Source: a virus
Strand: one strand, 5' to 3'
IMG/VR virus record: IMGVR_UViG_3300020477_000001
Location: 94,302-158,301 of that record
DNA length: 64,000 bases
Positions 3,120-64,000 of this stretch are shown here, one piece after another. A program made the translations under genes and the position numbers. The first letter of the stretch is position 1, and the number at the start of each line of letters is the position of its first letter. The notes beneath the pieces are model-generated. The model had not been told where the DNA came from. It did not search any database and was given only the letters and a program-made list of their open reading frames with translations.

Positions 3120-3401
3120 ATGAGAATGGATAAGATAGTACTGGGTAGGTTTTACTTTGATAAAGAGGAAGAGCACGTTGTACAGGCTCGACAGAAAGCG
3201 AATACGTCGTCAATTTTAGCCACTAGACACAGCCCAACGCCTTTTTTTGTGAAAGCCTCGACTTTGAGGGAAGCCTCAAAACAAGAAGTAGATCAGTACA
3301 AAGAAGAGACAGAGCAAAGAAAAAACAATAACTTTAAACTCCAGAAGCGCACAGCTAAAGTCAAATCTATTAAGAAGAAGAAGAAGGAGGAGGTTGCTTA
3401 A
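3120..3401 (+). CDS. hypothetical basic protein
   Basis: ORF track; own TTGAC promoter. Confidence 0.55.
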   Translation: MRMDKIVLGRFYFDKEEEHVVQARQKANTSSILATRHSPTPFFVKASTLREASKQEVDQYKEETEQRKNNNFKLQKRTAKVKSIKKKKKEEVA

Positions 3402-3499: not shown

Positions 3500-4597
3500 A
3501 TGGTAAAAGATAACGAAATAAATATATCCCCAGAAGAGTGGCTGCGGTTAAATGAGTCTTTCCCTAAAGAGGAAATTAAGAAAATGATCTCTGACGCCAT
3601 AGGAGACAATAACTTACCTATGCCCATGAGAAAAATCTCCGAGATGGACTCTATCTCAGACTTCGACAAACTAATCTCCTTTGACGATAAAGAAATAATT
3701 AAAAAAGAAGAGTGGTTCACTAGGTACGATTATAGCAGTAAGTATCCATTGTCGAATGTTCTTTTTTCGACATGTAATACTGGCAACAAAGCCTCCGACT
3801 ACTACCAGCAAGAAAACCGTTGGCGATGCGATAGCATAAACTCCCCAAGCCCATACAGAACTTGGACCACGGAAAAATTTAGAATGACGCTCCTAAACGC
3901 CCTATGGAGTCTTAAGCTAGAAGAGGTAAACTCAAAAAATCTTAGAGCGTGTATCGCACTTAGAAAATACATAGCAAACCAGTTTAGACCTTCCGCAGCC
4001 AAAGCAATTTACAACTATTTCGGTGCTCAAAAAACATTAGATTTTAGCTCTGGGTGGGGAGACAGATTGTGTGGCTTTTTGGCTAGTGACGCAGAATCTT
4101 ATGTAGGAATAGACCCCAATGAAAAATTATTTTCTGGCTATGAAAATATGTACGACATGTTCCTAGGGGAAAAGGAAATAGAAATCATAAATTGCTGCGC
4201 GGAAGATGTAAAGCTACCCGATAATGATTTTGACTTGGTATTTACATCTCCTCCATACTTTAATATAGAAAGATACACCCAAGAAGATAATCAATCTTGG
4301 AAGAAATACAGGAAAATTAATTCTTGGCTTGAAAACTTTTTATTCGTAGCACTGCAAAAGTCTTGGGATAGCTTGATAAATGGAGGATACTTGGCTATAA
4401 ATATAAGTGATGTATACTCAAATCATACTATAAATAAAATTTGTGACCCAATGAACGATTTTATATCTGAATTAAAAAATTCTAAATACATTGGCTGCTA
4501 CGGGTATCAAATGAGAAAAAGGCCGAGTAGTGGAGCGTTAAAGGGCAAAAAAGGTAAATTCGCTGAGCCGATTTGGGTTTGGCAAAAAATAAAATGA
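3500..4597 (+). CDS. amino (N4-C/N6-A) DNA methyltransferase
   Basis: LDFSSGWGDRL SAM-binding motif and FTSPPYF catalytic motif. Confidence 0.8.
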   Translation: MVKDNEINISPEEWLRLNESFPKEEIKKMISDAIGDNNLPMPMRKISEMDSISDFDKLISFDDKEIIKKEEWFTRYDYSSKYPLSNVLFSTCNTGNKASDYYQQENRWRCDSINSPSPYRTWTTEKFRMTLLNALWSLKLEEVNSKNLRACIALRKYIANQFRPSAAKAIYNYFGAQKTLDFSSGWGDRLCGFLASDAESYVGIDPNEKLFSGYENMYDMFLGEKEIEIINCCAEDVKLPDNDFDLVFTSPPYFNIERYTQEDNQSWKKYRKINSWLENFLFVALQKSWDSLINGGYLAINISDVYSNHTINKICDPMNDFISELKNSKYIGCYGYQMRKRPSSGALKGKKGKFAEPIWVWQKIK

Positions 4598-5251
4598 GAT
4601 TATTTTTATTTAAATTACTATTTAAGATAACTTGGTGGATCGCGCCCGATCAACGCCGCGTAAATAGGCTATTTGAAATGTACTTAGAGTACATTAAAGC
4701 AGAAGAAGATTACATTGCTTGCCAGAAAAGACAAGCCGAAATGGATGCTTGCATCCAGCCCAGAACCGAGACTTACGAGCATCTCACCACTAAAAAACAA
4801 AGAGACCTATATCGCGCAAGTATGCCCCCTAGGTCTTCTGATTCGAGTCAACCAAGAAGCCATTATTCTGACTATGAAGAAGCGAAAGCCTACCATGAAG
4901 GCCGATAAAATGTCCAAAGATTTTGAAGATATTAAGTACTACATCAAACAAGCAGAAGAATATGGCCTCCTGCAAGAAGTAATAATTACTGCGATTAAAA
5001 CTGCACAAGTAAACCCCAACTACGAACCAGAGGTTATAATGGACATGGCCTGTGACGACTGGGATATCTAAAGCTACTTCTTTCCTACCCTAAAAGCTAT
5101 CACGCACACACCGATTGCCGTAGCGAGCTTACACAAAGAATCCAAAATGGCCATAGTTAATGCTAGTTCATTCATAAATATAATTACACTTAAAAAAGTT
5201 ATACAATTAAAAATATTATATTGATAACCGCAACACGGTGTATATATTTAT

Positions 5252-5550: not shown

Positions 5551-6777
5551 ATGCCCCTTCCGTCTCCAAATAAAGGACAAAAAAAAGAAGAATTCGTAAA
5601 CATCTGTATGGACAATACTAAAATGCTAAACGAATTCCCAGACGACAAACAAAGAGCCGCTGTATGCTACTCCCAGTGGGACAAGTCAAATGGCTCCGTA
5701 GAGATGGATTTTTCGGGGCAGTACGTTCAAGCCAAGGAAGGCAAAACCCTAAACAAGCCATTCAGAACGCCAAAGGGTCCAAAGAAATTTTCTGTGTACG
5801 TTAAGAACGAAAAAGGCAACGTAGTAAAGGTTAACTTTGGCGATCCGAACATGGAGATTAAGAGGGACGACCCGAAACGCAGAAAGAACTTCAGAGCAAG
5901 ACATAACTGCGAAAACCCCGGTCCTAAAACCAAAGCTAGATACTGGTCCTGCAAGATGTGGAGCAAGAAGAGCGTTACCAAAATGACCAAGGGCTCAGAA
6001 GACTGCGAATGGGATGGCGAAACTTTTTTCGATCACGACGAACTATTAACCCTTAACCCATCATTAGCCTTCGTAGAAACAGAAATCACCGAAAATGACG
6101 ACATCTGCGAGTGCGAACCCAATGAGGCTACTCTCGCCAAGAAGGAAAAAACCCTTCCGCCCGCCCTCCAAAAACAAATCTTAAAGAAAAAGGGCAAGAA
6201 AAAAGAAGAGAATTCTAAAGAGGAAGAAGAGAAAGCTGAGAATAAATCCAAGGCAGACGAAGACGATAAAGTAGTGCTTCCATACTTGAGGCAGAAAAAA
6301 ACTGCCGACGCTTACGAAATGAGTTACAATGAGTACAATCAAGTAATGAATTTCAATGACGCAGTAGAGACTAGGGATGACTTGCCAGTAGAAGACCTAG
6401 AAGAGGCTATTTCTGCGAAGCGTAGAGGACCAAAGTCTTCAGCGCAAACACCAGCTAAGCCCAGTGAAAGAAAAAAAGGTTCATCCAAAAATAAAAAAGG
6501 TAGCGCTGGCAAGAGCGGACCCGCAATTACTTTCTCAGCAAAAGTAACTGAGTCTCTAAAAAACAAAGTAAAAGAACACAACTCAAAATACCCTAAAAAA
6601 GTAACACTAAGCCAACTTAAAAAAGTATACAGAAGAGGTGCAGGAGCTTTCTCTTCATCGCACAGACCGGGTAAAACAAGAGGTCAATGGGCTATGGCCA
6701 GAGTCAACATGTTCTTAAAAATGAAAGCTGGTAAAAAAGTAAAAGACAGCTACAGAGCGGCTGACGGAGACATATAG
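5551..6777 (+). CDS. multi-domain basic phage protein
   Basis: ORF track; NFRARHNC..RYWSCKMW and KVYRRGAGAF..QWAMARVN modules recalled from large-phage proteins. Confidence 0.6.
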   Translation: MPLPSPNKGQKKEEFVNICMDNTKMLNEFPDDKQRAAVCYSQWDKSNGSVEMDFSGQYVQAKEGKTLNKPFRTPKGPKKFSVYVKNEKGNVVKVNFGDPNMEIKRDDPKRRKNFRARHNCENPGPKTKARYWSCKMWSKKSVTKMTKGSEDCEWDGETFFDHDELLTLNPSLAFVETEITENDDICECEPNEATLAKKEKTLPPALQKQILKKKGKKKEENSKEEEEKAENKSKADEDDKVVLPYLRQKKTADAYEMSYNEYNQVMNFNDAVETRDDLPVEDLEEAISAKRRGPKSSAQTPAKPSERKKGSSKNKKGSAGKSGPAITFSAKVTESLKNKVKEHNSKYPKKVTLSQLKKVYRRGAGAFSSSHRPGKTRGQWAMARVNMFLKMKAGKKVKDSYRAADGDI

Positions 6778-13500: not shown

Positions 13501-13580
13501 TTGATATTATAACAATGTATACTATATTGTGGTGGCTTTCTGTGTTGGGTTGTTTCAAGAGCACAGTCGTCGCCAGTGAA

Positions 13581-13612
13581 GGGAGCGGGCTTTTGCCCGC
13601 TCTCTTTTTTTT
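13581..13612 (+). terminator. Rho-independent terminator
   Basis: GAGCGGGC-TTTT-GCCCGCTC followed by a T-run. Confidence 0.8.
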
Positions 13613-13621
13613 AAAAACTTC

Positions 13622-13653
13622 TTGACCGAAATTAAAAAACCATATAGCATAAT
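13622..13653 (+). promoter_or_regulatory. sigma70-type promoter of the ncRNA/TnpB unit
   Basis: TTGACC-17 bp-TAGCAT, with the ATTAAAAAAC spacer shared by other promoters in this window. Confidence 0.65.
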
Positions 13654-13657
13654 CCCC

Positions 13658-13819
13658 AGTCGCTAACAGACTGCTACGGTGGGTTGCACCGGAAGGGGAG
13701 GGAAACCTCCAAATGCCGAATAGGTATGGTTCGCTTGCGAAGCAGATTCGGAAAGTTCCTAGGGGTCAACGGGGGGAGGATCATCCCGATCCTCCTCCCG
13801 CCCCCAAACCCTACAACAC
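13658..13819 (+). ncRNA. putative tracrRNA/omegaRNA-like scaffold upstream of the TnpB-like gene
   Basis: Hairpins CGGTG-GGTTG-CACCG, GGAGG-GAAA-CCTCC and CCGAAT..TTCG-CTTG-CGAA..ATTCGG, then AGTTCCT (13754-13760, complementary to the repeat core), a long GC stem and terminal CTACAACAC. Confidence 0.65.
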
Positions 13820-13828
13820 ATCTTTAAA

Positions 13829-15337
13829 ATGAAAAAAAAATCTAAACTTCAAAAGGTTGAACAAGAAACTATTCCTGTTAAATACCGAATCTACCCAAAC
13901 CTTAAGCAACGCAAATACCTTGACAGATGCTTTCTTTCCAGCCGAATCGTATGGAACTGGCTGCTAGGAGTACAGAAAGATTATGACCGTGGTCTTACTG
14001 AATGGGTAAAAGAAAAGTATGCCAAAGAGCTACAGAAATTCTGCAAGAAAGAAGGCTTCGAATTAAGCAGTCCATTTGAGCACGAAAAAATAAAAGAATT
14101 AAAAAAAGGAGAAGCGAAAAAATTTCACACGGAAGTCATTCGCCTCAAGAAGGAGGAAGTTTTCCCCTCTGTCTTAGGGATAGAACTCCTTAAAGCCATT
14201 ATTCCTAATGCAGAAGAAGACGAAATCAAGAAGATGATAGTCAACAAAAAGAATCCTTCCGCTTCTAACAAGACTATCAACATCATGGACTTAAAAAGGC
14301 AAGTAAAAAACCTTCGAGAAGATAAACCAATCTTAAACCAAGTCGCATCCCAAGGAATCCATCACGTACCGCTTAACCTAGCTAAAGCTTGGAAGGCGTG
14401 CTACGACAAGAACCGCCCAGATTCCGGTGAGCCTAAATTCAAGAACAAATTCGCGAAGCAGTCATTCACTTTTGACACAGCAAAGCTTCAAGGAAATAAG
14501 TTATTCCTCCCGCCTAAAAGCAAAAACATTTTCATTAAAACAAAAGTCCATCGAGAGATGGAGGGTGAGCAAAAAACAATTACTGTTACTAAAAGCAAAA
14601 CAGGAGAATACTACGCCTCAGTTAACTTTAGGCAAGATGTATTCTTCCCGAAGCCCAAAAGTTTTAGTAAATCGAGCACGGTTGGCATTGACCTAGGAAT
14701 TAAAGATGACTACATCATTATGTCTAACGACATGGGGTCAATCAAAAACCCAAAATTTTTCAAGAAGCATGAGCGCAAAATCGCAATGCTAAATCGAAAA
14801 TTATCGCGCTCCCAGCCGAATAGCAATTCACGCAACAAAGTTCTACACGAGCTTAACCGCGAGTACGAGAAGCTCTCTAAAGCAAGGGAAGATTTTCAGC
14901 ATAAGGTAACACACCAGATCGTAACTAACCCAAACATCAAGGCGGTGGCTGTCGAGGACTTGAATGTGAAGGGCATGACAGCTAAGAACAAACCAAAGGA
15001 GGGCGAAAATGGCCACTACTTACCAAACAATCAGTGCGCCAAACGAGGACAAAACAAAGCCACTCTGGACGCTGGGTTTGGAAGAGTTAGGCAGATGCTT
15101 GACTACAAATGTAAGCGCAATGGCAAAACGTTTGGAAAAGTTGACAGGTTCTTTGCATCCTCCAAAACATGCAACAACTGCGGTCATATCAATAAAGAGC
15201 TCAAAGTTTCCGACCAGTACTGGACCTGCGAAAAATGTGGCGAGCATCACGAGAGGAACTTTAATGCGGCAAATAACGTGCGAGATGAATTTATACGCGC
15301 AAGCAAGCAGAAAAAGAAAACCAAGAACTCGAAATAA
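13829..15337 (+). CDS. tnpB: TnpB/Cas12f-like RNA-guided RuvC protein, RuvC-III D>N
   Basis: KYRIYPN HTH-OrfB start, PKFK, GIDLG (D288), VEDLNVKGM (E376), CNNCG..CEKCG Zn finger, ERNFNAA (N477); no tnpA nearby. Confidence 0.9.
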   Translation: MKKKSKLQKVEQETIPVKYRIYPNLKQRKYLDRCFLSSRIVWNWLLGVQKDYDRGLTEWVKEKYAKELQKFCKKEGFELSSPFEHEKIKELKKGEAKKFHTEVIRLKKEEVFPSVLGIELLKAIIPNAEEDEIKKMIVNKKNPSASNKTINIMDLKRQVKNLREDKPILNQVASQGIHHVPLNLAKAWKACYDKNRPDSGEPKFKNKFAKQSFTFDTAKLQGNKLFLPPKSKNIFIKTKVHREMEGEQKTITVTKSKTGEYYASVNFRQDVFFPKPKSFSKSSTVGIDLGIKDDYIIMSNDMGSIKNPKFFKKHERKIAMLNRKLSRSQPNSNSRNKVLHELNREYEKLSKAREDFQHKVTHQIVTNPNIKAVAVEDLNVKGMTAKNKPKEGENGHYLPNNQCAKRGQNKATLDAGFGRVRQMLDYKCKRNGKTFGKVDRFFASSKTCNNCGHINKELKVSDQYWTCEKCGEHHERNFNAANNVRDEFIRASKQKKKTKNSK

Positions 15338-16441: not shown

Positions 16442-16876
16442 ATGAGGAAAAACAAGATTTCATTAGTAAGCGGCGGATTTGATCCAATTCACGTTGGACA
16501 CATAGAACTCTTTAACAGGGCTAGAGAAATCTCTGACGGGCTATTCGTGATCTTGAATAGTGATAGGTTCCTCACAGAAAAGAAGGGCAAGCCCTTCATG
16601 CAGCAACCAGAAAGAAAAGTCATTATTGAAAACTTACAGATGGTTGACTTGGTTATACCTTCAATAGACGAAGACCAAACGGTTTGTGCTACCCTGCGAA
16701 AACTAGCTAGCCTCAAGGACGCAGTTGACTCTGAATTATATTTCTGCAATGGTGGAGACAGGACGGACGGCGAGAACACGCCAGAACACAAAGTCTGCGA
16801 AGAAGTCGGAATACACAACGTTTATGGATTAGGTGAAAAAATCCAAAGCAGTAGTTGGCTTACGAAAGGGAACTGA
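16442..16876 (+). CDS. cytidylyltransferase-family protein
   Basis: SGGFDPIHVGH (HxGH), NGGDR, KIQSSS. Confidence 0.85.
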   Translation: MRKNKISLVSGGFDPIHVGHIELFNRAREISDGLFVILNSDRFLTEKKGKPFMQQPERKVIIENLQMVDLVIPSIDEDQTVCATLRKLASLKDAVDSELYFCNGGDRTDGENTPEHKVCEEVGIHNVYGLGEKIQSSSWLTKGN

Positions 16877-18167: not shown

Positions 18168-18205
18168 ACTTGACTTAACTTAAAAAACTCTATATCTTCC
18201 TATGC

Positions 18206-24514: not shown

Positions 24515-25381
24515 TGCAAAAGCCAGACAACAAAATGAAGCGCTGGCTAAACTCTCAGACCAAAGATTTAAAAAAAATTAATTTTAATTCTCTGGTAAAT
24601 TCATTCAAAGACAAGTTTAAGGTCAGTATCAACGATGCTCGTATGTACGTGATGCAATGGGACCACGACAGAAACAAGCATTAAACCGCCGTATTAGATG
24701 CTTGACATATATTAAAAAACTCCTTATCATATATCTACAGACATACCTTAAGATATATATAGGAACAAACAATGGACTTAATATTTGCGGCAATAGTGAT
24801 ATACTTCTTCTGCTTTGCTTTTAAGCAGCTAGTCAAGGATTTGTAAATCGAGGGGGAGCTACAACACAACAAATTGTGAAAACAATAGCCCTGTTTTTAC
24901 GAGCTTTTTACACATTTTTTAAAACACTCACAGTGAACTACAACACTATAAGCTAGTATGGAACTAATAAACACAATAAAGCATTTCAAAAGAATAAAAT
25001 AAAATATTGAAGTGTATTAAAATGGGTTAATGTGGGGTGCATATTATATATATATCCGTCAAGCATTAAATTTAAAAACTATTCACATATTTATTAACAC
25101 TGAAACCACGTCAAGCAAAAACAACAAAAAACAATAAAAAACTTATTAATATTTTCTAAGTCAAGAAAAAACAAACAAAAACTTAAAAAATTATTATTGA
25201 CTATATAGCAAATATATGGGCTTAAAACCAAGAAAAGAAGGAGAAGCAAAAAGAATAGCAACATACATAATATTAATCATATATGGAATTGTTATACTTA
25301 TAGTTTATCTATTAAATAAATTATTTTCTTGACACAGATAAATGGAATTAAAACACAATAAAGAATAGAGGGTTTTTTTTG

Positions 25382-25482
25382 TTGACTTAACTTAAATAAA
25401 TTAGTATAATGTTTCCAAAGGGGCTTCATCACAACAAAGGTAAGATTTTTCTTGACTTAAGTTAAATAATATATTAAAATTT
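25382..25482 (+). promoter_or_regulatory. tandem duplicated sigma70 promoters upstream of the repeat region
   Basis: TTGACT-17-TATAAT at 25382-25410 and a near-copy at about 25453, both followed by TTTCCAAAGGG; no ORF downstream. Confidence 0.6.
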
Positions 25483-25577
25483 TCCAAAGGGATTTTTTTT
25501 ATTTTTTTTAATTCTTATAATAGGAATTATTTTTTTCTTGACAAGTAAATAATGTTTCTTATTCTTATTATGCTTAA

Positions 25578-25795
25578 GGAGCTACACCACGTTATTAACA
25601 CCAACGTACACGGAACTACACCACCCATTTGCCGACGATTGATTTTTAAGGAACTAAAGCACGGATTCGAACTCACGTCTGGAACTACGACACCCATTTA
25701 CCAAGGAGCCGCAACACGTCGAATGCAGTGGTATATTTGTGAACGCAATCGAGCCAAATAATAGGAACTAAATACACGAGGTCGGGAGTTCAGAA
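25578..25795 (+). repeat. mini-array of 13-nt cores GGARCT-NNNN-CAC
   Basis: Cores at 25578, 25612, 25650, 25681, 25705 and 25764, separated by unique sequence. Confidence 0.7.
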
Positions 25796-25800
25796 AAGCC

Positions 25801-25829
25801 TTGACTCATCTTAAAAAACTCTTCATAAT
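25801..25829 (+). promoter_or_regulatory. promoter of the CRISPR array
   Basis: TTGACT-catcttaaaaaactctt(17)-CATAAT; same class as the tnpB-unit promoter. Confidence 0.7.
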
Positions 25830-25925
25830 AGTCCCCAGATTAAGAAACTGATCTTTGACATAGGCACTGCAACACACGAGGCCAAAGACATTCAAGGGAC
25901 TACAACACAACATTATGGTATTCCT

Positions 25926-26476
25926 TAGCAATTTAAGGGACTGCAACACAGTAAGGCGATTATAACATCGCGCTCGACGGTTCGCACTGGTACTAATTTA
26001 AGGGACTGCAACACTGCAACCATGCTAACTAACGTGGTTACACAGCTTCGCACTGGTAGCAATTTAAGGGACTGCAACACTGTTACACACATCGCTGCGA
26101 TGAAGCGGCGGCTTCGCACTGGTACAGATTTTAGGGACTGCAACACCGTATCAGAACGAGATATCGTCCCGCCTTGGGCTTCGCACTGGTAGCAATTTAA
26201 GGGACTGCAACACTTAGTCGAACCGCATAACGTCGAGTGTCTGCTTCGCACTGATAGCAATTTAAGGGACTGCAACACAATGAGGCAGATAATGGAAGGG
26301 GTAGCTAGCTTCGCACTGATAGCAATTTAAGGGACTGCAACACAAAACTGCACCAACAGGAAGCGGAATCACAGTTTTGCACTGGTACTAATTTAAGGGA
26401 CTGCAACACAAGGGGTGACGTAGTGGAAGCGACCACATAAGCTTCGCACTGGTACAGATTTTAGGGACAACAACAC
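25926..26476 (+). CRISPR. CRISPR array: 8 full repeats plus 1 partial, 36 bp (GCTTCGCACTGGTAGCAATTTAAGGGACTGCAACAC), 8 spacers of 29-31 bp, no adjacent cas genes
   Basis: Repeats start at 25926 (partial), 25979, 26045, 26111, 26178, 26243, 26308, 26374, 26441; spacers are unique, lengths 29,30,30,31,29,29,30,31. Confidence 0.92.
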
Positions 26477-26495
26477 AGTAAAGAACCCTACGTAC

Positions 26496-27358
26496 ATATT
26501 TGTGAATGATTTTTGGACAAATAAAGGAACAACAACACTGAATCTCTAGGCGATATTTGTGAATGATTTTAAGGCAAATAAAGGGAACTACAACACTCTG
26601 TTAAAGTCCGTCCAACACGAGGCGGCGAGAATTGATGCCGATCAAAATACTTAATTATTGATTGACTAATTTTTTTGTCGCTCATTTGTGAACGTCAAAG
26701 AGGCAAATAATATAGGGGAATTAAATTAGATATTTTAGATTAATAGGGACTAATTAAACACGATGCTCAATCCCAATATTGTTAATTTATGAATGATTTT
26801 TTGCCAAATAAGGGTTATTTAACATAAGGGAATTTCGTATACAAGAAAAATGTTGCCCCGGAGAAAACACCCCCTTATAAGAAATATATTAAAGGAACTA
26901 AAACACAACAAAAGTGATGAAGAATTTAATTTTAATTATTATTATTTTAATTATTACTGGTTGTTATACAGCCAAGGAAAGAGTAATGCCTCTTGGTCCC
27001 CATGATGATAGCTATGGTAAGAATTGGGTAAGTAATTAAGGAACTGTAACACCAAATCCAGCATGGCGTTTAGATATTTTGGGAACTAAAACACGGGTAT
27101 AGCTCATTTGAAATAGGAACTAGAACACATGTGGTGCGCCATTATATTTGTGAACGCGATTTTTGCAAATAAAGGAACTACAACACCAGCGGTTTCAGAA
27201 GCTATCTGTGAACGCGATTTTTGCAAATAAAGGAACTACAACACCCGTCATGGAATTATAACACTAACTCCTCAGATGGAACTACAACACGTTGAGATAC
27301 TGCTTTCGCGGGAGCTATCTGTGAACACAATTTTTGCAAATATAGGGAACTACAACAC
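26496..27358 (+). repeat. second repeat family (~43 bp) ATATTTGTGAAYG..TTTT.GCAAATAAAGGAACTACAACAC
   Basis: Copies at 26496-26538, 26553-26596, 27144-27186, 27203-27244, 27316-27358 (also 25733-25777; decayed copies near 26684 and 26785). Confidence 0.75.
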
Positions 27359-27510
27359 GACGGGAACTCACGACGGAGAGTTAATCAAGGAACAACAACA
27401 CGAAAACTTTTTCTGTATTCTTGATCTTGTAATGGAACTACAACACTCAAGGGCGGCTCATTTTAATTTAAAATAAAAAAGGGAACTACGACACTTGCTA
27501 TTATTAATTG
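27040..27510 (+). repeat. mini-array of 13-nt cores
   Basis: Cores at 27040, 27082, 27116, 27174, 27232, 27252, 27278, 27346, 27389, 27434, 27482. Confidence 0.75.
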
Positions 27511-27589
27511 TATCTTTAATTAGTGTAATTATTATTGTCTATAAGTTTTTATTGACTGTAATTAAATTGCTCTATATAAAAGGATACAC

Positions 27590-27826
27590 ATGAAAAAAAA
27601 GAAACTATCCCCGCAAGCCCAAATATACGAGAAGGCTTGGAACGACGTAGTGTCCGAAATGAGTGACCATAAAAGAAATATTATTATTAATAATTTTACT
27701 GTTGTCAGTGGTCATCATGTATATGAGAATAAATATGATCAAAGGGTAGCAGATGAAGCAGCTAAGGAAGCCCGTATACGAGGTGACCAACAAATAGAAG
27801 CACTGTTTCCAACTGGCAAGTATTAA
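27590..27826 (+). CDS. hypothetical protein
   Basis: ORF track; upstream TTGACT promoter. Confidence 0.5.
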   Translation: MKKKKLSPQAQIYEKAWNDVVSEMSDHKRNIIINNFTVVSGHHVYENKYDQRVADEAAKEARIRGDQQIEALFPTGKY

Positions 27827-27827
27827 A

Positions 27828-27925
27828 GGTACTACAACACGAGCGGGCACTACAGTGGTAGGAACAACAACACAGTCCCCTGCTATAATCTATGGAACTA
27901 AAGCACGAGTGCATATAGTAGAAAA
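27828..27925 (+). repeat. three-unit mini-array, 33-bp period (13-nt core plus 20-nt spacer)
   Basis: Cores at 27828, 27861 and 27894, directly after a stop codon. Confidence 0.75.
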
Positions 27926-27977
27926 AAATAAAAAAAAATAATTGACTTAAATTAAAAAAAACTTCATACTGGTCGCC

Positions 27978-28220
27978 ATGAAGAGAAAAGGTTCTGGCAA
28001 AACAAAGGGAGCGACCAGCTTCGTACAAGTGACACTGGGAGAGCTCAACCGCGTACTCAAAGAGGGTGCAGTGGTTGTGGTCAGTCGCAAGTACGCCGAG
28101 CAACTGGAGCTCGATTCTAAGCCCATGTATTCTAATTACAAGAATCTTGAGGCCCACTCAAACCAAATCGATGTCAAGATCGATGAACCGGAGGACACAA
28201 TTGATTTCAAAGTAGAATAA
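27978..28220 (+). CDS. hypothetical protein
   Basis: ORF track; leaderless promoter architecture. Confidence 0.6.
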   Translation: MKRKGSGKTKGATSFVQVTLGELNRVLKEGAVVVVSRKYAEQLELDSKPMYSNYKNLEAHSNQIDVKIDEPEDTIDFKVE

Positions 28221-28293
28221 TGGAATAACAACACGAACGAAAAGACTTCATAAAAGTCTTGACCTAACTTAAAAAACTATATAATATATCCCT

Positions 28294-63044: not shown

Positions 63045-64000
63045 ATGGCAACTGTAGACGTAATAGTTACAGGCAGTTCCCCTACTGCCGACGTAATAGT
63101 GAAAGGTCAGACAGTCTCTGCCTCCGCAGAGATTAAGGGTAGTCAAGGGCCAACTGGCCCAGTTGGTCCTACTGGCCCTGCTGGCGGCGCTGGGCCTTCT
63201 GGCCCTACTGGTCCTACAGGGGCGACAGGCTTAGATAATTTCGTAAAAGAATTTACCGTAACTGTAGCTAATCCGGGTTCTGGGAATAAGTATTATATTG
63301 ATTCGTCTCTTACTCCTACTCTAACTTTATATAGGGGGTTTTCTTACAAGTTTGTATTATCTAACTCCTCCAACGCAGAGCATGACTTAAAGTTTTCAAC
63401 TACATCAGATGGCTCACATAATTCTGGGACGGCTTATACGGATGGGGTAACTAGTTATGGCACTGATGGGAGTTCTGGGGCTTACGTAAGGTTCAAAGTT
63501 GGACATTCGGCCCCTTCTACTCTTTATTACTTTTGTAACAATCACTCTGGAATGGGTGGAACTATTAGTGTTATAGATTTAGCTAATGGACCTACCGGAC
63601 CCACTGGAGGCACTGGTCCAACCGGACCTACCGGACCCACTGGAAGTACTGGACCTACTGGTCCTGCTAGTACCGTAGCTGGACCTGCTGGACCCACTGG
63701 ACCCACTGGCGGAACTGGACCCACTGGTTCTGCTGGTCCTGCTGGTCCCACTGGACCTACTGGAGGCACTGGCCCAACCGGACCTGCTGGAAGCACTGGG
63801 CCTACTGGTCCTGCTAGCACCGTAGCTGGACCTACTGGACCTGCTGGACCCACTGGTCCCACTGGAGGCACTGGCCCAACCGGACCCGCTGGACCTACTG
63901 GTCCCACTGGAGGCACTGGCCCAACCGGACCCGCTGGAAGCACTGGTCCAACCGGACCTGCTGGACCTACTGGACCTACTGGAGGAACTGGACCCGCTGG
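63045..64000 (+). CDS. collagen-like fibre protein (runs off the window end)
   Basis: ATG at 63045; Gly-X-Y (GPT/GPA) repeats at about 63139-63231 and from 63588 to the end, flanking a globular domain ending [13 protein letters not shown]. Confidence 0.85.

Follow-up and report, generated by a model that had tools for sequence, protein, structure and literature searches.

The DNA examined here, called the window throughout, is a stretch of 64,000 nucleotides, the final 64 kb of a virus record that is complete at 158,301 bp and carries direct terminal repeats (IMG/VR record IMGVR_UViG_3300020477_000001, positions 94,302 to 158,301). It encodes a TnpB-derived effector protein preceded by a structured leader RNA, and further downstream it carries a CRISPR array together with a field of solitary guide units. 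An earlier sequence-only reading of the leader had proposed that it is tracrRNA-like (tracrRNA: trans-activating CRISPR RNA), with an anti-repeat that pairs with the array repeats and with their solitary copies. The locus is laid out as follows.

13578-13607: intrinsic terminator of the upstream gene.
13622-13650, plus strand: predicted sigma-70-type promoter, TTGACC-17 nt-TAGCAT, from a consensus scan.
13657-13805, plus strand: structured tracrRNA-like scaffold RNA of seven helices, supported by shuffle z-score, alignment covariation and a covariance model.
13674-13695, plus strand: helix P2/P3, which includes the hairpin CGGUG-GGUUG-CACCG at 13677-13691; its stem covaries.
13716-13751, plus strand: helix P5, in which CCGAAU (13716-13721) pairs with AUUCGG (13746-13751); it encloses P6 and shows compensatory changes.
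13727-13744, plus strand: helix P6, inside P5.
13752-13761, plus strand: single-stranded linker AAAGUUCCUA, unpaired in the consensus fold, with the anti-repeat AGUUCCU at 13754-13760.
13762-13805, plus strand: terminal GC-rich hairpin P7, GGGG...CCCC around GGGGGGAGGAUC/GAUCCUCCUCCC, with covarying pairs in helices 6 and 7.
13806-13828, plus strand: tail AAACCCUACAACAC plus AUCUUUAAA, in which a handle-like ACAACAC (13813-13819) abuts the 5' untranslated region (UTR) and start codon of the effector gene.
13829-15337, plus strand: TnpB-derived effector of 502 aa (Pfam HTH_OrfB_IS605, OrfB_IS605 and Cas12f1-like_TNB), with the RuvC-III Asp replaced by Asn (N477).

Because a sigma-70-type promoter lies at 13622-13650, transcription is expected to start near 13657; from that point about 172 nt are non-coding before the TnpB-like open reading frame (ORF) begins at 13829. 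The spacer TTAAAAAAC is conserved in the family to which this promoter belongs, other members of which are found at 18169, 20171, 24695, 25800 and 28252 (families D12/D14), and the copy at 25800 precedes the CRISPR array. The short sequences named in the sequence-only reading all lie where it had placed them: AGTTCCTA at 13754-13761, CGGTGGGTTGCACCG at 13677-13691 (a 5-bp stem with the loop GGUUG at 13682-13686), TGCGAAGC at 13736-13743, and CCGAAT (13716-13721) with ATTCGG (13746-13751).

The leader folds into a conserved structure. Its 171 nt are more stable than 200 of 200 shuffled sequences (z = -3.0), and the RNA is present upstream of every effector of the clade for which DNA is available, across four lineages and down to 39% protein identity. 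An alignment of 11 sequences from the four lineages gives a consensus of seven helices and 37 pairs. In this alignment 95.5% of paired cells can pair, compared with 41-53% in controls in which the pairing partners were slid by 1-3 columns, and compensatory changes on both sides are seen at 16 of the 37 pairs, against 1-3 in the slid controls and 8.5 in shuffles. Two pairs in the stem of the hairpin at 13677-13691 change from G:C to C:G or U:A, and the P5 stem CCGAAU/AUUCGG, which had been picked out before any homologue was aligned, carries compensatory changes in four of its six pairs. A search of the scaffold region against Rfam matched no family.

The structure is also specific to these effectors. 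The sequence-only reading had called for a covariance model built from the regions upstream of homologous genes, and such a model finds the RNA only upstream of the effectors of this clade. It gives a single match in the 158-kb phage genome (13657-13808, 128 bits), recovers the RNA in held-out loci of two lineages, B and D, and matches neither the loci of 80 ordinary phage TnpBs nor an unrelated locus of type V. The leader is thus a conserved structured RNA associated with an effector, as expected of a tracrRNA.

The effector belongs to a small clade of full-length relatives of about 500 aa. In a phylogenetic tree the four lineages form one clade (support 100/99), apart from ordinary TnpBs, and two insertions, a helical one of about 95 aa and one in RuvC, are present in all of them and absent from ordinary TnpBs.

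Lineage A: the window, L004-6 and L002/3; proteins P0001-P0004; 68-95% identity to the window protein.
Lineage B: L007-9, L023, L027, L036 and L037; proteins P0006-P0010; 39-42% identity.
Lineage C: L035 and L129; proteins P0005 and P0271; P0005 has 43% identity.
Lineage D: L118/119 and L130/131; protein P0122; 39% identity.

Among solved structures, the TnpBs of ISDra2 and ISFba1 come nearest, both in sequence and in predicted fold. A phmmer search gives E 1e-30 to ISDra2 TnpB and only about 6e-4 to Cas12f, and Foldseek also ranks TnpB first. The top PADLOC hit, Cas12u4 (V-U4/Cas12n), and the Cas12f profiles were rejected, as ordinary TnpBs score the same or higher. The effector gene is single-copy in the phage genome and syntenic in related phages, where it stands beside a Hydrolase_2 gene. 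Arrays adjoin it in lineages B, C and D, and lie 10.6 kb downstream in lineage A. An IMG/VR protein search for further members of the clade returned ordinary TnpBs only; of the 25 matches to a pattern scanned across metagenomes, five were real members of lineage A or B and the rest were chance; and an exhaustive profile search added lineage D only. One candidate, P0123 of contig L120, was rejected as belonging to a different system with an unrelated repeat. This phage-like contig has a small array of an unrelated 37-nt repeat, GTTCGGATGGTAGTTCTGACGGAACTAGGTTGGAAAC, at 6130-6330, after the 475-aa TnpB-like P0123, which has the RuvC-III Asp.

The guides of the window fall into two groups.

25800-25831, promoter, followed by 25914-26499, CRISPR array, plus strand: nine 36-nt repeats ending GGGACUGCAACAC, with spacers of 29-31 nt (repeat families D5/D6).
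24855-28234 (3.4 kb), plus strand: field of some 30 minimal guide units; a unit consists of the 13-nt handle GGAACUACAACAC, either bare or joined to a hairpin, with unique sequence after it.

In most units of the field, 15-30 nt of unique sequence come after a bare 13-mer; some units have the hairpin as well. Outlying guide units are found at 16869, 21091, 30332 and 30369, and the scattered mini-guides number about 35 in all. Matches to GGAACTACAACAC with up to two mismatches number 43 on the plus strand and 0 on the minus strand.

The link between the leader and these handles is the anti-repeat. AGUUCCU (13754-13760) is accessible: the fold has a single long unpaired linker, which joins two covarying helices, P5 and the terminal hairpin, and the motif lies in it. 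It can pair with (A)GGRACU, the first half of the handle, over 6-8 bp, as the anti-repeat of a tracrRNA does with its repeat. Across the four lineages the two partners are as follows.

Lineages A and B: anti-repeat AGUUCC; repeat core GG(A/G)AC(U).
Lineage C: anti-repeat UAUUCC; repeat core GGGAUA in all six repeats, from two independent samples with different spacers.
Lineage D: anti-repeat AGUCCU; repeat core AGGACU, seen in over 45 repeats from four contigs.

Anti-repeat and repeat have therefore changed together in lineages C and D, with 6-8 Watson-Crick or wobble pairs preserved; the change in lineage C turns a C:G pair into U:A and an A/A mismatch into A:U. The sequence-only reading had staked its claim on the anti-repeat being conserved, or covarying, among homologues. 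Lineages A and B do conserve it, and in C and D it co-changes with the repeat, which is the opposite of what would have counted against the claim.

Calculated pairing energies follow the same pattern. Paired with its own linker, the lineage D handle reaches -9.4 kcal/mol, but with those of other lineages only -3.8 to -5.6, and the lineage C linker reaches -10.3 kcal/mol with its own handle but only -4.7 to -8.1 with other handles; lineages A and B have an identical anti-repeat and their duplexes score alike. When the whole scaffold is left free to fold, the anti-repeat is the lowest-energy dock for a 15-nt handle in five of five scaffolds (ddG -7 to -10 kcal/mol). Longer duplexes found by RNAduplex between whole repeats and the scaffold were discounted: they differ between lineages and would melt conserved helices. 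The sequence-only reading had itself cautioned that a match of 7-8 nt can arise by chance, and rightly so. With 17 occurrences of AGTTCCT in the phage genome, where 9 would be expected, a 7-nt match alone is not significant, and we estimate that a 7-mer complementary to some part of the core would occur in a 108-nt stretch by chance in a few percent of cases. The match rises above chance because it lies in the unpaired linker of a conserved, covarying RNA and because it changes together with the repeats in other lineages.

It had further been claimed that G.U wobble accounts for the variation among handle cores. The variants in question are present: GGGACT is the core of eight of the nine array repeats, the last having GGGACA, GGAGCT occurs at 24855 and 25578, and GGAATT at 25344 and 27252; so are the exceptions GGAACA, GGTACT (27828) and GGCACT (25863). 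Counted over 118 cores of lineages A and B, 73 of the 82 substitutions at core positions 3-5 are A>G or C>U and hence compatible with G.U pairing, and G1 and G2, where a transition would break the pair, are almost invariant. The claim thus stands for positions 3-5 but not for position 6, to which we return below. Array copies inflate the substitution counts, and the wobble evidence is taken as supporting rather than decisive. Another claim did not survive comparison. TGCGAAGC (13736-13743) had been noted as complementary to the 5' end of the 36-bp repeat, but this match is found in lineage A only, where it lies inside P6 and its loop; the corresponding sequence in B-D is unrelated, though the repeat 5' end is conserved there. 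With a chance expectation that we put at about 7%, the 8-bp match is probably fortuitous.

The second half of the handle may dock elsewhere. In the ISDra2 omega-RNA and the Cas12f single guide RNA (sgRNA), a 5'-proximal segment is paired with the nucleotides that immediately precede the guide on its 5' side, and the repeat:anti-repeat stem is made by the segment next to these (PMC10097598). The handle described here fits this plan: a stem strand of 6 nt and a single linker nucleotide are followed by a pseudoknot strand of 4 nt, which leaves 2 nt ahead of the guide. The loop GGUUG (13682-13686), in the hairpin that had been put forward as the pseudoknot partner, is invariant in the four lineages though its stem covaries, and is predicted to be unpaired with a probability of 0.93-1.0; CAAC in the handle is nearly invariant. 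Thus the hairpin itself is borne out by compensatory changes in its stem, while its pairing with CAAC is plausible, both sides being invariant and hence giving no covariation as a test. By analogy with the published guide RNAs (PMC10097598), we give a GGUUG:CAAC pseudoknot a roughly even chance.

The effectors of lineages A-C differ from ordinary TnpBs at the active site. The RuvC-III motif reads ERN[FH]NA in all ten A-C proteins, against DRDxNAA in TnpBs, while D288 and E376 are kept; lineage D retains the Asp, in HRDVNA. Judged from these residues, the A-C effectors are probably nuclease-dead. Within lineage D, the 13.7-kb contig examined has an array without scattered units. The combination in lineages A-C of the Asp-to-Asn substitution with scattered mini-guides points to a shift from cutting to binding.

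Taken together, these findings make it likely that the RNA at about 13657-13805 acts in trans as a scaffold: it would be the tracrRNA-like part of an omega-RNA split in two, and would serve the downstream TnpB-derived protein in guided binding without cutting. We infer that the scaffold is transcribed, processed and bound by the protein, and that cleavage has been lost in A-C in favour of repression. In the proposed mechanism, the phage promoter would transcribe the scaffold as the leader of the effector mRNA, and the scaffold would fold into its seven helices and bind the effector. The unpaired AGUUCCU (13754-13760) would then pair with (A)GGRACU, the first half of a 13-nt handle, and CAAC of the handle would probably pair with the GGUUG loop at 13682-13686, so restoring the guide-pseudoknot-stem core that guide RNAs of TnpB and Cas12 share; next would come AC, two further handle nucleotides, and then the guide. 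Since a handle of 13 nt would suffice, guides could be placed in a normal array of 36-nt repeats or in very short arrays, or could be set one by one at gene ends. The A-C effector would most likely bind its targets without cutting them, because the third RuvC catalytic Asp is Asn throughout A-C, and would act as an RNA-guided repressor in the manner of TldR.

Several observations weigh against this reading. The covariation amounts to two evolutionary events only, with none in lineages A and B, and the duplex is short, at 6-8 bp. In locus L007 a U-to-G change at the flank of the anti-repeat has no matching change in the repeats, and core position 6 is unconstrained, being A in most lineage-B repeats, opposite an A. 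The GGUUG:CAAC pseudoknot shows neither covariation nor a wobble bias (11 of 28 handle substitutions are compatible). An Asn at a metal-binding position may leave residual activity. Lineage A has no U-tract or terminator between scaffold and gene, so that a discrete lineage-A tracrRNA would need processing; in lineages B-D, P7 is followed by CUCAAAUUUU, which may act as a weak terminator. Lastly, searches of the phage's own genome, of cultured phages, of IMG/VR and of GTDB genomes yielded no convincing target and no target-adjacent motif (TAM), which leaves repression a proposal.

Other explanations of the leader have been considered. It might be a self-contained, omega-RNA-like single guide acting in cis, in which the tail handle ACAACAC (13813-13819) uses the 5' UTR and start codon as its guide, the effector thereby regulates itself, and the match to the scattered handles is secondary. 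Single guides occur naturally as the omega-RNAs of TnpB (PMC10097598), no terminator separates scaffold from ORF in lineage A, and lineages A, B and C all preserve, in the same position, a tail ending of handle type (CAAACAC, CAAGCAC, AACAACAC, ACAGCAC), which lineage D, with its retained RuvC-III Asp, lacks. Against this, the tail lacks the GGAAC half of the handle, by inspection AGUUCC has no consistent cis partner across the lineages, and the putative guide has no other match in the phage genome. Such a guide would also leave unexplained both the covariation of the anti-repeat with the array repeats and the presence of GGRAC in about 120 handles of related loci. As a full account we regard it as unlikely; it could coexist with the trans role, and the handle-like tail may serve as a cis guide through which the effector regulates itself.

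It is more doubtful still that the leader is nothing but a structured 5' region of the effector mRNA, concerned with stability or translational control, and that its complementarity to the repeats is a coincidence. The RNA is indeed contiguous with the ORF and a 7-nt match alone is within chance expectation, but coincidence does not account for the co-change of anti-repeat and repeat in two independent lineages, for the placing of the motif in the one long unpaired linker, or for a GGUUG loop that stays invariant while its stem varies. Least probable, and in our view very much so, is that GGAACT/AGTTCC is a single protein-binding site on DNA, present in two orientations, with a regulator that binds both the guide units and the effector promoter region and with altered DNA specificity behind the co-change. 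In each lineage the reverse complement of the anti-repeat does equal one core variant. Yet only the first 6-7 nt of the handle are mirrored and its invariant CAACAC half is not, and the cores show a total strand bias, with about 120 on one strand and 0 on the other. The lineage C repeat reads GGGAUA where the mirrored form would be GGAAUA, a difference tolerated only as a G.U pair; the asymmetry of the substitutions likewise fits RNA pairing, and the site lies within a covarying RNA.

The system can be set beside several that are already known. TranCs are transposon-CRISPR intermediates with a TnpB-like effector and an omega-RNA split into tracrRNA and CRISPR RNA (crRNA) (bioRxiv 10.64898/2026.03.27.714800, PMC13565253). 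As TranCs are described there, the present loci share with TranC the type and size of the effector, the split omega-RNA, short arrays with repeats of about 36 nt, the lack of adaptation genes nearby and the carriage of some members by phages; a TnpB-like effector, a CRISPR array and a split guide RNA are all found here. On that description, lineage D (L118, L130, L131), with its RuvC-III Asp kept and its array, fits the TranC description, whereas lineages A-C, with their Asp-to-Asn change, would not have the active RuvC of TranC, as judged from sequence. Also unlike the TranCs so described, the scaffold here is the 5' leader of the effector gene, and besides the array there are dozens of solitary or ultra-short units with a 13-nt handle only. 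The LaTranC structure (9jfo) matches by sequence only residues 411-484, the C-terminal zinc-ribbon region.

TldRs are, like the A-C effectors, domesticated TnpB homologues with a mutated RuvC that are non-mobile, sometimes phage-borne, and supplied with guides fixed by evolution (bioRxiv 10.1101/2023.11.30.569447; 10.64898/2026.09.22.753285). As in TldRs, the RuvC mutation occurs here without a transposon: N477 is fixed in A-C and the gene is syntenic and single-copy, though no search was aimed at tnpA. Unlike TldRs, which use one contiguous guide RNA beside the gene, the present system has a separate 5' scaffold that would serve the array and the mini-guides (more than 40 units) in trans, and only one of the three catalytic residues is changed. 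A TldR guide matches a host target close to a promoter and beside a TAM; the searches described below gave no convincing target here. The sequence-only reading had likened the leader to the Un1Cas12f1 tracrRNA, a resemblance that holds for architecture only, as the protein is closer to TnpB than to Cas12f. As in Cas12f (Un1Cas12f1/Cas14a), the handle would dock at two sites, a 3'-proximal anti-repeat and, probably, a pseudoknot strand in the interior, and the scaffold is multi-stem and at least 150 nt long; unlike in Cas12f, the anti-repeat is shorter and the effector groups with TnpB. Dead Cas12f systems (dCas12f-sigmaE and the array-associated dCas12f cluster; PMC13472631) likewise combine a miniature, inactivated type V effector with CRISPR-repeat-like guide units scattered around the locus. 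In that study no tracrRNA-like species was found and inactivation was by C-terminal truncation (PMC13472631). Unlike dCas12f-sigmaE, the present locus shows no sigma-E, whether fused or operonic; there is a sigma-70 gene at a distance of about 9 kb.

What the guides recognise was sought in several collections. Compared with the phage's own genome they gave chance-level matches only, and a guide match with one mismatch at genome position 48695 was discarded, as it falls in a 29-aa non-gene. Among cultured phages nothing scored below E 0.3. Exact scans of IMG/VR returned one unrelated GC-rich 18-mer match, taken as chance, and nothing for an array spacer. In GTDB genomes there was no match to a 20-mer, and a degenerate start-codon pattern gave 49 taxonomically scattered matches, close to chance expectation.

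Some of the mini-guides are nevertheless conserved. Lineages A and B, whose effectors are about 40% identical, have 19 near-matching pairs of mini-guides in common, compared with 1.0 in shuffles. The conserved guide families are CCAYTTRCC..., GTTATTAACAC.AAC and TGAATCTYYARGYGAT, with sites at 25578-25700 and 26526-26553 in the window, 5024-5100 and 8628 in L007, 2011-2100 and 4820-4900 in L008, 888-980 in L009, and 3898-4000 in L027. Conservation of guides at this effector identity may indicate fixed targets in the host or in competitors, with the array spacers turning over instead. Cas1 was looked for in the phage and is absent, so that spacer turnover needs another explanation, such as host adaptation machinery or recombination.

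Further observations on the guides may be recorded. Variation in the conserved guides has a period of three, as coding targets would give, and two lineage-B guide variants read as the antisense of ATG...CARATCGGCAAGTGG. Array spacers are entirely different between near-identical loci, whose scaffolds and effectors are the same or nearly so (L035 1661-1819 and L129 2839-2987; L008 3930-4400 and L037 1668-1900). The guide AACATTATGGTATTCCTTA, which follows the core at 25896 (window 25909-25927), also occurs as the final spacer in an array of lineage D (L131, about 3246-3275, reverse strand), and is thus a spacer common to Asn-bearing and Asp-bearing lineages. A second type of repeat consists of a 7-bp hairpin (UAUUUGU...GCAAAUA) followed by AAGGAACUACAACAC, with guides of only about 15 nt between copies; it is found at 25734-25776, 26497-26596, 27145-27245 and 27316-27358 in the window and at 10475-10511 in L007, and its hairpin might set the 3' end of the preceding guide.

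The position of handles relative to genes is also of note. In lineages B and C the first handle overlaps the stop codon of the effector itself (L007 7649, L009 2811, L036 1891, L035 1661), and the window handles at 16869, 21091, 28222 and 30332 lie on or beside stop codons, several of them at the ends of unrelated genes. Because handles sit on or beside stop codons, it is suggested that guides are cut from the 3' ends of mRNAs.

A broader and more speculative picture, which we advance tentatively, is that a lytic marine phage family has turned a TranC-type system into multiplexed, hard-wired RNA-guided repression. One scaffold with its own promoter would equip a non-cutting TnpB-derived protein with dozens of guides; the handle in the leader would be self-regulating, and 13-nt handles could be written into any transcript, even over unrelated stop codons. 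On the main reading, the locus offers a natural case in which a TnpB guide RNA has been split until the guide-bearing piece keeps 13 nt, which suffices for the stem, and probably the pseudoknot, to be formed again with a shared scaffold. One clade holds both states, lineage D being TranC-like (Asp, array only) and lineages A-C TldR/dCas12f-like (Asn, array plus scattered guides). This raises the questions of how short a handle a type V effector can use, and of whether phages run multiplexed programmes resembling CRISPR interference (CRISPRi) against hosts or rivals. It also suggests a compact multiplex design, in which one scaffold serves many guides with 13-nt handles carried inside ordinary transcripts.

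The remaining observations are minor. An array leader motif, GAGGTCGGGAGTTCAGAAAAG (window 25778-25799), is similar to a tRNA T-arm and has the form GAGGTCGGGAATTCAAAT in lineage B (L008 about 3906-3929, L037 about 1644-1667), and the guide at 25663-25680 (GGATTCGAACTCACGTCT) resembles the antisense of a tRNA T-arm; an ARAGORN scan of the window found no tRNA. An intergenic element about 100 nt long (TTGAC...AAAACGCGGCGCGAGACAATC-loop-GATTGTCGCCCGCCGAGC...), which combines a promoter-like box with a strong hairpin, is present in six or seven copies between 30889 and 42932 of the window, at a spacing of 0.7-5 kb. At the very end of the record, near the terminal repeat, a dense tandem repeat with a 9-bp period occupies 63578-63998.

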